Shown piece by piece: positions 19,118 through 19,495 of a DNA stretch of 27,513 nt. Each line of letters opens with the position of its first letter. Position 1 is the first letter of the stretch. The stretch comes from Escherichia coli (lineage in GTDB: Bacteria; Pseudomonadota; Gammaproteobacteria; Enterobacterales; Enterobacteriaceae). Made by a program: the position numbers and the translations under genes. The DNA is taken from assembly GCF_003334385.1 (NCBI RefSeq), contig NZ_QOWN01000057.1. One strand, given 5' to 3'. Below the pieces are notes generated by a model, which was given only the letters and a program-made list of their open reading frames with translations, had not been told where the DNA came from and searched no databases.

Positions 19118-19204
19118 TGGTGCGAGGGGGGGGACTTGAACCCCCACGTCCGTAAGGACACTAACACCTGAAGCTAGCGCGTCTACCAATTCCGCCACCT
19201 TCGC
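19118..19204 (-). tRNA. tRNA-Leu (anticodon CAG), 87 nt including CCA
   Basis: The reverse complement reads GCGAAGGTGGCGGAATTGGTAGACGCGCTAGCTTCAGGTGTTAGTGTCCTTACGGACGTGGGGGTTCAAGTCCCCCCCCTCGCACCA: class II tRNA with a long variable arm and a CAG anticodon. Only one copy is present. Confidence 0.95.
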
Positions 19205-19339
19205 ATACCATCAATTCTTAAAAAGAATTGCTACCACGGAGGCGCATTCTAGTGGTTTTCAGCTTTTCGTCAATAGTTAATTATCGCCGGAGGTGTAATT
19301 GCTGGAAAAATGGCCATCAGCGGATTGTGGATAATTCGT

Positions 19340-19495
19340 TTGTAGGTCGGATAAGGCGTTCACGCCGCATCCGACACGGCATTCGGGGGCAGATGCCAGA
19401 TGCGACGCTGGCGCGTCTTATCTGGCCTACAAGGGCTAACGTGCAGGTTTGGTATGTCGGATAAGGCGTTTACGCCGCATCCGGCAAGGCTTGCG
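19340..19495. repeat. Cluster of REP (BIME) palindromic elements
   Basis: Three copies of the REP core in alternating orientation (gtaggtcggataaggcgttcacgccgcatccgaca; gatgcgacgctggcgcgtcttatctggcctaca; tgtcggataaggcgtttacgccgcatccggcaa) between tRNA-Leu and rsmC. Confidence 0.7.

Follow-up and report, generated by a model that had tools for sequence, protein, structure and literature searches.

In Escherichia coli K-12, the interval between yjjZ and rsmC contains leuV, leuP and leuQ, three tandem genes that all encode tRNA-Leu with the anticodon CAG, as a preliminary description of the present DNA had stated and as the RefSeq annotation of MG1655 bears out (4606079-4606401). At the same position, the E. 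coli DNA analyzed here carries only one such gene. Is this gene the remainder of a tandem array, does it represent the original state of the locus, or was it created by the assembly of short reads? Here we address this question in the whole stretch of DNA under analysis, 27,513 nucleotides long and hereafter called the window, in which the ORF map and the RefSeq records of colinear strains give the gene order yjjQ, bglJ, fhuF, yjjZ, tRNA, REP cluster, rsmC, holD, rimI, yjjG. The features surrounding the tRNA gene, in window coordinates, are the following.

18843-19079, plus strand: yjjZ (DUF1435), the left flank, convergent with the tRNA gene (ORF list; RefSeq colinear strains)
19080-19117, minus strand: 3′ trailer downstream of the tRNA, the same as the sequence downstream of K-12 leuV (alignment)
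19118-19204, minus strand: tRNA-Leu(CAG) gene, the sole copy at the locus, with CCA encoded (ARAGORN; Rfam tRNA; identity to K-12)
19205-19245, minus strand: leader, from the promoter to the 5′ end of the mature tRNA, with a presumed start site
19246-19273, minus strand: putative sigma-70 promoter of the tRNA operon (consensus scan, 10/12 matches)
about 19342-19377, no strand assigned: REP unit 1 (gap in the K-12 alignment; REP-core counts)
about 19392-19430, no strand assigned: REP unit 2, in opposite orientation, common to K-12 (sequence read; alignment)
about 19452-19488, no strand assigned: REP unit 3, adjoining the rsmC stop codon, common to K-12 (sequence read; alignment)
19505-20536, minus strand: rsmC (16S rRNA m2G1207 methyltransferase), the right flank, its 3′ end toward the REP cluster (ORF list; RefSeq)

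In the whole window, ARAGORN recognizes a single tRNA gene, a tRNA-Leu of 87 nt with anticodon CAG, and the Rfam tRNA model matches it at 19121-19204 on the minus strand with 48.5 bits, compared with a gathering score of 29. Furthermore, a string search allowing up to 3 mismatches detected no second tRNA copy or remnant on either strand of the window. The three approaches agree on the one 87-nt tRNA-Leu between yjjZ and rsmC that had been noticed beforehand; its location on the minus strand is a detail that the preliminary description did not give. The molecule has the cloverleaf, the long variable arm and the CAG anticodon of a leuQ/P/V/T-type gene, and the 3′ end of its sense strand is ...TCGCACCA, i.e., the 3′ CCA is encoded. 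It is identical to K-12 leuV and leuQ at 87 of 87 positions and is devoid of the single-base variant carried by K-12 leuP. Considering this identity, the window tRNA-Leu(CAG) would be expressed, processed and aminoacylated like its K-12 counterparts (PMC2190699).

Upstream of the gene, the predicted promoter presents a −35 element (TTGACG), a 16-nt spacer, a −10 element (TAGAAT) and a G+C-rich discriminator, GCGCCTCC, an arrangement of the stable-RNA type. It is a strong match to the sigma-70 consensus and is identical to the sequence found upstream of leuQ in K-12, and everything from the −35 hexamer up to the tRNA is invariant among the four strains compared (window, K-12, O157:H7 and 20AR0192). 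By analogy with the K-12 literature, the region 19246-19273 would thus be an active promoter. In K-12, leuQ, leuP and leuV constitute one transcript that is processed by RNase P, the enzyme also in charge of leader removal, and the trailer is an unstructured Rho-dependent terminator (PMC2190699). A terminator search of the window revealed no hairpin after the tRNA on the minus strand, which should not be taken as a defect since the K-12 trailer is itself unstructured and Rho-dependent.

The alignment with the K-12 yjjZ-rsmC region, which the preliminary description had proposed as a check, displays the exact loss of two repeat units between colinear flanks. It contains one clean gap of 236 bp, a length made up of two tRNA repeats of 87 bp each and the spacers of 34 and 28 bp, so that whole repeat units are missing and the end points fall inside the repeats. 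Downstream of the last K-12 gene the two sequences do not differ, and the approximately 120 bp upstream of the first K-12 gene are nearly identical, with few base differences. Both loci share their position between yjjZ and rsmC, the promoter, the leader and the 3′ trailer; in contrast, the K-12 operon comprises three genes whereas that of the window comprises one, without either spacer and 236 bp shorter. A mobile element was also contemplated as the cause of the missing copies and was rejected, given that there is no foreign DNA at the junction and that the prophage lies 3 kb away, at prfC.

We consider, with a probability of about 0.9, that the window carries the leuQ-leuP-leuV operon cut from three tandem genes to one through recombination between direct repeats. 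The 236-bp loss would have taken place between near-identical direct repeats of 87 bp lying 28-34 bp apart, either by unequal crossing-over between sister chromosomes or by replication slippage, and could have been completed in one step, involving the first and the third copies, or in two steps, via a two-copy intermediate. The surviving gene, provided with the original promoter, leader and 3′ trailer, would be normally transcribed and processed from a monocistronic precursor, for which the intergenic RNase P cleavages that take place in K-12 (PMC2190699) would be unneeded. Both the molecular pathway of the deletion and the expression of the remaining copy are proposed here on the basis of sequence comparison. 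E. coli strains have already been described as differing by plus or minus one copy of a tRNA gene (PMC4539685). In general, copy changes of tandem tRNA arrays by unequal recombination or slippage exhibit the same loss of integral units, the same untouched flanks and intermediates in the population; there is no difference in kind, the window having lost two units of the tRNA-Leu1 array.

A more trivial explanation has to be weighed, namely that two or three copies really exist and that a short-read assembler threaded the 87-bp repeat and dropped the spacers. Such a collapse would be technically possible because the repeat unit (115-121 bp) is shorter than, or about as long as, a typical k-mer or read. 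In the same direction, no complete genome is identical to the window over 12 kb (in a query of that length, the best complete E. coli genome reached 99.0% over 78% of the query, 9.3 kb), and strain 167, which has the same local haplotype and is 99.4% identical to the window over 901 nt, still has two copies. However, the 27.5-kb window is contiguous, with no contig break at the repeat, and the same single-copy arrangement is present in eleven complete-genome records from independent projects, all of them 100% identical to the window in a single alignment of 358 nt that extends over yjjZ, the tRNA and the promoter. Ec-050, AR216.2b, AR202.2, EcPNK006 and TUM2805, for instance, match the window perfectly over this segment and carry the same single tRNA-Leu(CAG). 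Moreover, up to 441 complete genomes are devoid of the spacers. Altogether, these data make an assembly artefact quite improbable, and argue for a real contraction of the operon.

The extent of the single-copy state in the species was estimated by megablast in 5426 complete RefSeq E. coli genomes, using a junction-specific query for each spacer, that of spacer 1 including 30 nt of tRNA on each side; spacers were counted because a single-copy locus has no unique junction. Spacer 1 (ACAGTCATCTTACTTTTTTTGATATCGCCTCGTT) was covered in 4985/5426 genomes and spacer 2 (CCAGTGCGAGCAATATCAACGTGGTTTT) in 4980/5426. Both spacers are found in about 92% of the complete genomes, and a small number of them have two copies. 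Single-copy genomes amount to at most 441 of the 5426 (about 8%), a figure that constitutes an upper bound as spacers, rather than tRNA genes, were counted. A query spanning the window junction was covered at ≥80% in 509 genomes, a number inflated by joined multi-copy loci (strain 167, 10153, O111) and employed only as a consistency check on the bound of 441. The tRNA query alone gave 21,100 matches in the 5426 genomes, about 600 below four per genome. The whole K-12 array with its flanks was tried as a census query too, and was dropped since joined pieces give single-copy genomes a coverage of 88%, to the point that 5421/5426 genomes appear “covered.”

Among the single-copy genomes there are many O157:H7 strains, Ec-050 and its derivatives, AR216.2b, AR202.2, EcPNK004, EcPNK006, TUM2805, the AVS wastewater/river series and GF3-3, among others, so that several haplotypes without relation to each other are represented. 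The single-copy locus is a common standing polymorphism and not a strain peculiarity, so that its rarity, at up to about 8% of complete genomes, had been overestimated at the outset. Hundreds of public genomes already include the variant, with annotation, and mechanistically it is ordinary. The tRNA operon in question has been studied in detail, and the window represents one of its common natural alleles, with little import beyond bookkeeping. As a separate observation, the fhuF-yjjZ-tRNA-Leu-rsmC core region of TUM2805 (NZ_CP128951.1) is carried by a circular record of 655 kb designated an “untypable” plasmid, which could mean that the chromosome is split, that a chromid-like excision occurred or that the assembly is at fault.

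The problem of which state came first was approached by searching prokaryotes, each species represented by one genome, for a threefold tandem occurrence of the first 26 bases of the tRNA, a pattern that finds triple arrays only and that shows their spread, not the frequency of fewer copies elsewhere. Triple arrays were found at no fewer than 120 loci, and rsmC adjoins 106/120 among the matches listed, usually with HolD and FhuF near. The taxa concerned include Citrobacter, Enterobacter, Klebsiella, Kluyvera, Salmonella enterica subsp. arizonae, Pantoea, Erwinia, Serratia and Hafnia. This occurrence of the triple array at rsmC across Enterobacterales shows that the three copies are ancestral and much older than E. 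coli, and that the single copy is the derived state.

The opposite polarity, with one ancestral copy and an expansion to three in K-12 and most E. coli, could find an argument in the fact that the same unequal recombination is able to expand tandem arrays, as exemplified by the leuT locus of O157:H7, which did expand. Nevertheless, it would have to account for the triple arrays beside rsmC in so many Enterobacterales genera, for the presence of both spacers, highly conserved in sequence, in about 92% of E. coli, for the scattering of single-copy loci over differing REP haplotypes, and for the retention of spacer 2 in O55:H7 DEC5E while O157:H7 is single-copy. We hold this alternative to be extremely improbable, and contraction from an ancestral triple array is the direction followed below.

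If contraction proceeds by recombination between adjacent repeats, two-copy loci preserving either of the spacers are its expected products, and both possible kinds exist in E. coli. Indeed, among the loci that were fetched, strain 167, Z1323CEC0018 and O111:H2 12A keep only spacer 1, and 20AR0192 keeps only spacer 2. The clean gap, the ancestral triple array and these two-copy intermediates jointly support the contraction by tandem-repeat recombination that had been put forward in the preliminary description, the deletion pathway itself being the one that we infer.

Several layers of evidence also bear on the number of times that it occurred. Single-copy loci are observed on backgrounds with one REP upstream (O157:H7), two (GF3-3) and three (the window and others). 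Although EcPNK004 and the window share 99.2% identity over the locus, the one tRNA gene of EcPNK004 bears the leuP-type base, whereas the window and ten genomes of identical haplotype have the leuV/leuQ-type base, a situation that requires two crossovers or, alternatively, an earlier gene conversion. Strain 167, in spite of its similarity to the window, has kept two copies. O55:H7 is taken as the progenitor lineage of O157:H7, and every O157:H7 genome examined is single-copy; the spacer 2 kept by DEC5E would thus place a contraction on the O157:H7 branch. Altogether, these comparisons show that contraction has occurred repeatedly and independently.

The base that distinguishes leuP deserves a comment of its own. 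K-12 leuP (L001, 1701-1787) differs from its array neighbours by one base in the variable arm, and the middle copy of strain 10153 presents a second base difference; L012 (739-825) and L004 (9118-9204) were examined in the same respect. Strict identity of the three genes, as described in the literature, thus does not hold, and the leuP base serves as a marker for which copy outlived a contraction.

tRNA-Leu(CAG) reads CUG, the commonest codon in E. coli, and the reduction of this array raises the issue of gene dosage. K-12 has four genes for tRNA-Leu1 (CAG), namely leuQ, leuP, leuV and leuT, three of which belong to the array discussed here (PMC2190699). In genomes 100% identical to the window over 358 nt, the tRNA query finds 2 matches in total, compared with a median of 4 for the 5426 genomes, so that the change in dosage of this Leu isoacceptor, anticipated in the preliminary description, is indeed observed, as a decrease, in the near relatives. 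The window strain would probably have two tRNA-Leu(CAG) genes, the one described here and leuT, outside the window, i.e., half the usual number. This means that the tRNA gene set of K-12 is not the species norm in every lineage, and that codon- or tRNA-adaptation indices calculated from K-12 copy numbers would be off for such strains (four genes for Leu-CAG vs. probably two).

It has been reported that deletion of leuVPQ alters the mature tRNA pool and that the loss of redundancy for frequently used tRNAs, leucine included, is detrimental when nutrients permit rapid growth (Raval et al., PMC9981150). By analogy, a quantitative effect of the contraction on growth is plausible. It could further be proposed that the contraction is kept by selection that favors a reduced dosage of tRNA-Leu(CAG) where growth is slow or nutrients are scarce, instead of reflecting neutral mutation at a high rate; through the recurrent leuQPV contraction, selection would then have matched the supply of tRNA-Leu(CAG) to the growth niche, with compensation at a second locus. 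In favor of this proposal, the contraction recurs on several backgrounds and the contracted lineages include all the O157:H7 genomes examined, the AVS wastewater/river series, Ec-050/AR216, and dog and human isolates; how costly or beneficial tRNA redundancy is has been reported to depend on the nutrients available (PMC9981150); and O157:H7 couples the contraction with a duplication of leuT. However, a high deletion rate between 87-bp direct repeats predicts recurrence equally well, about 92% of the genomes keep three copies, and the sampling of complete genomes is strongly biased to outbreak clones. We thus regard as rather unlikely both the maintenance of the contraction by selection and its reading as a niche-related adjustment with compensation. 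Should selection nevertheless be at work, E. coli would offer a natural allelic series (one, two or three copies at this locus; one or two at leuT) to weigh the costs and benefits of tRNA redundancy. In any case, the natural one-, two- and three-copy series arising from contraction of the operon could serve for tests of translational redundancy, this being a use of the polymorphism and not a discovery made here.

The situation of O157:H7 illustrates a different overall balance: like the window it has a single copy at this locus, and in addition a duplicated leuT. The duplication at leuT, which belongs to the argX-hisR-leuT-proM locus and lies outside the window, was observed in PV15-279 (L136, 1270-1932) and RM19259 (L137), and it shows that a second locus can gain a tRNA-Leu(CAG) copy; the Leu(CAG) genes then amount to three vs. 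four in K-12. The duplication also creates a chimeric tRNA-Pro-like gene of 75 nt (L136:1630-1704), whose end is derived from hisR, and which is called by ARAGORN and is devoid of RefSeq annotation.

Turning to the sequences upstream of the promoter, the three REP elements mentioned in the preliminary description after the tRNA are effectively seen at 19342-19488, as three REP-core matches that are clustered, alternating and extragenic, between the stop codon of rsmC and the tRNA promoter. REP units 1 and 3 are direct repeats with 84% identity, and REP unit 2 differs from both in type and orientation; units 1 and 2 together match the REP-derived Rfam family naRNA4 (19345-19427, 73 bits, above the gathering score). 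As in the REP/BIME clusters known at the 3′ ends of E. coli genes, the units are imperfect palindromes of about 35-40 nt, alternating and extragenic, placed here at the 3′ end of rsmC. How many units are present here varies from strain to strain: K-12 has two, and the window has those of K-12 plus one. The additional unit, REP 1, is absent in K-12 and GF3-3 and is found in strain 167, EcPNK004/006 and Ec-050. This third REP (19342-19377) is a second polymorphism, independent of the tRNA copy number. By strain, the REP-core counts are one in O157:H7, two in K-12, three in the window and five in 20AR0192. When 19326-19500 is compared with L001, L010 and L014, the variable REP block starts about 85-100 bp upstream of the presumed start of tRNA transcription, the extra REP of the window being located from roughly 100 bp upstream. 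The FIS sites of the K-12 leuV promoter were reportedly described by Ross et al. in 1999.

Beyond the genes discussed so far, the right part of the window (22250-27513) contains the end of a prophage. prfC is interrupted about 65 nt past its start, and colinearity with EcPNK004 stops at 22314. The features of this part are the following.

22545-23756, plus strand: prophage integrase
23993-25840, plus strand: ORF of 615 aa between the prophage integrase and excisionase
26057-26251, minus strand: prophage excisionase
26251-26898 and 26895-27443, minus strand: phage ORFs

The 12-kb query that reaches the integrase is covered at ≥80% in 39/5426 complete genomes, and the cargo differs among them, with yfdPQR-like genes in STK78-E, for instance. 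In the 615-aa ORF, the N-terminal part is an ABC-type ATPase, and the C-terminal part is possibly Toprim-like. In PADLOC it matches AriA, from the anti-phage system PARIS, best (E=8e-57, aa 21-391), and Old and GajA less strongly. It resembles a defence gene of the ATPase-nuclease kind, either single-gene or fused, that the prophage would carry as a moron.
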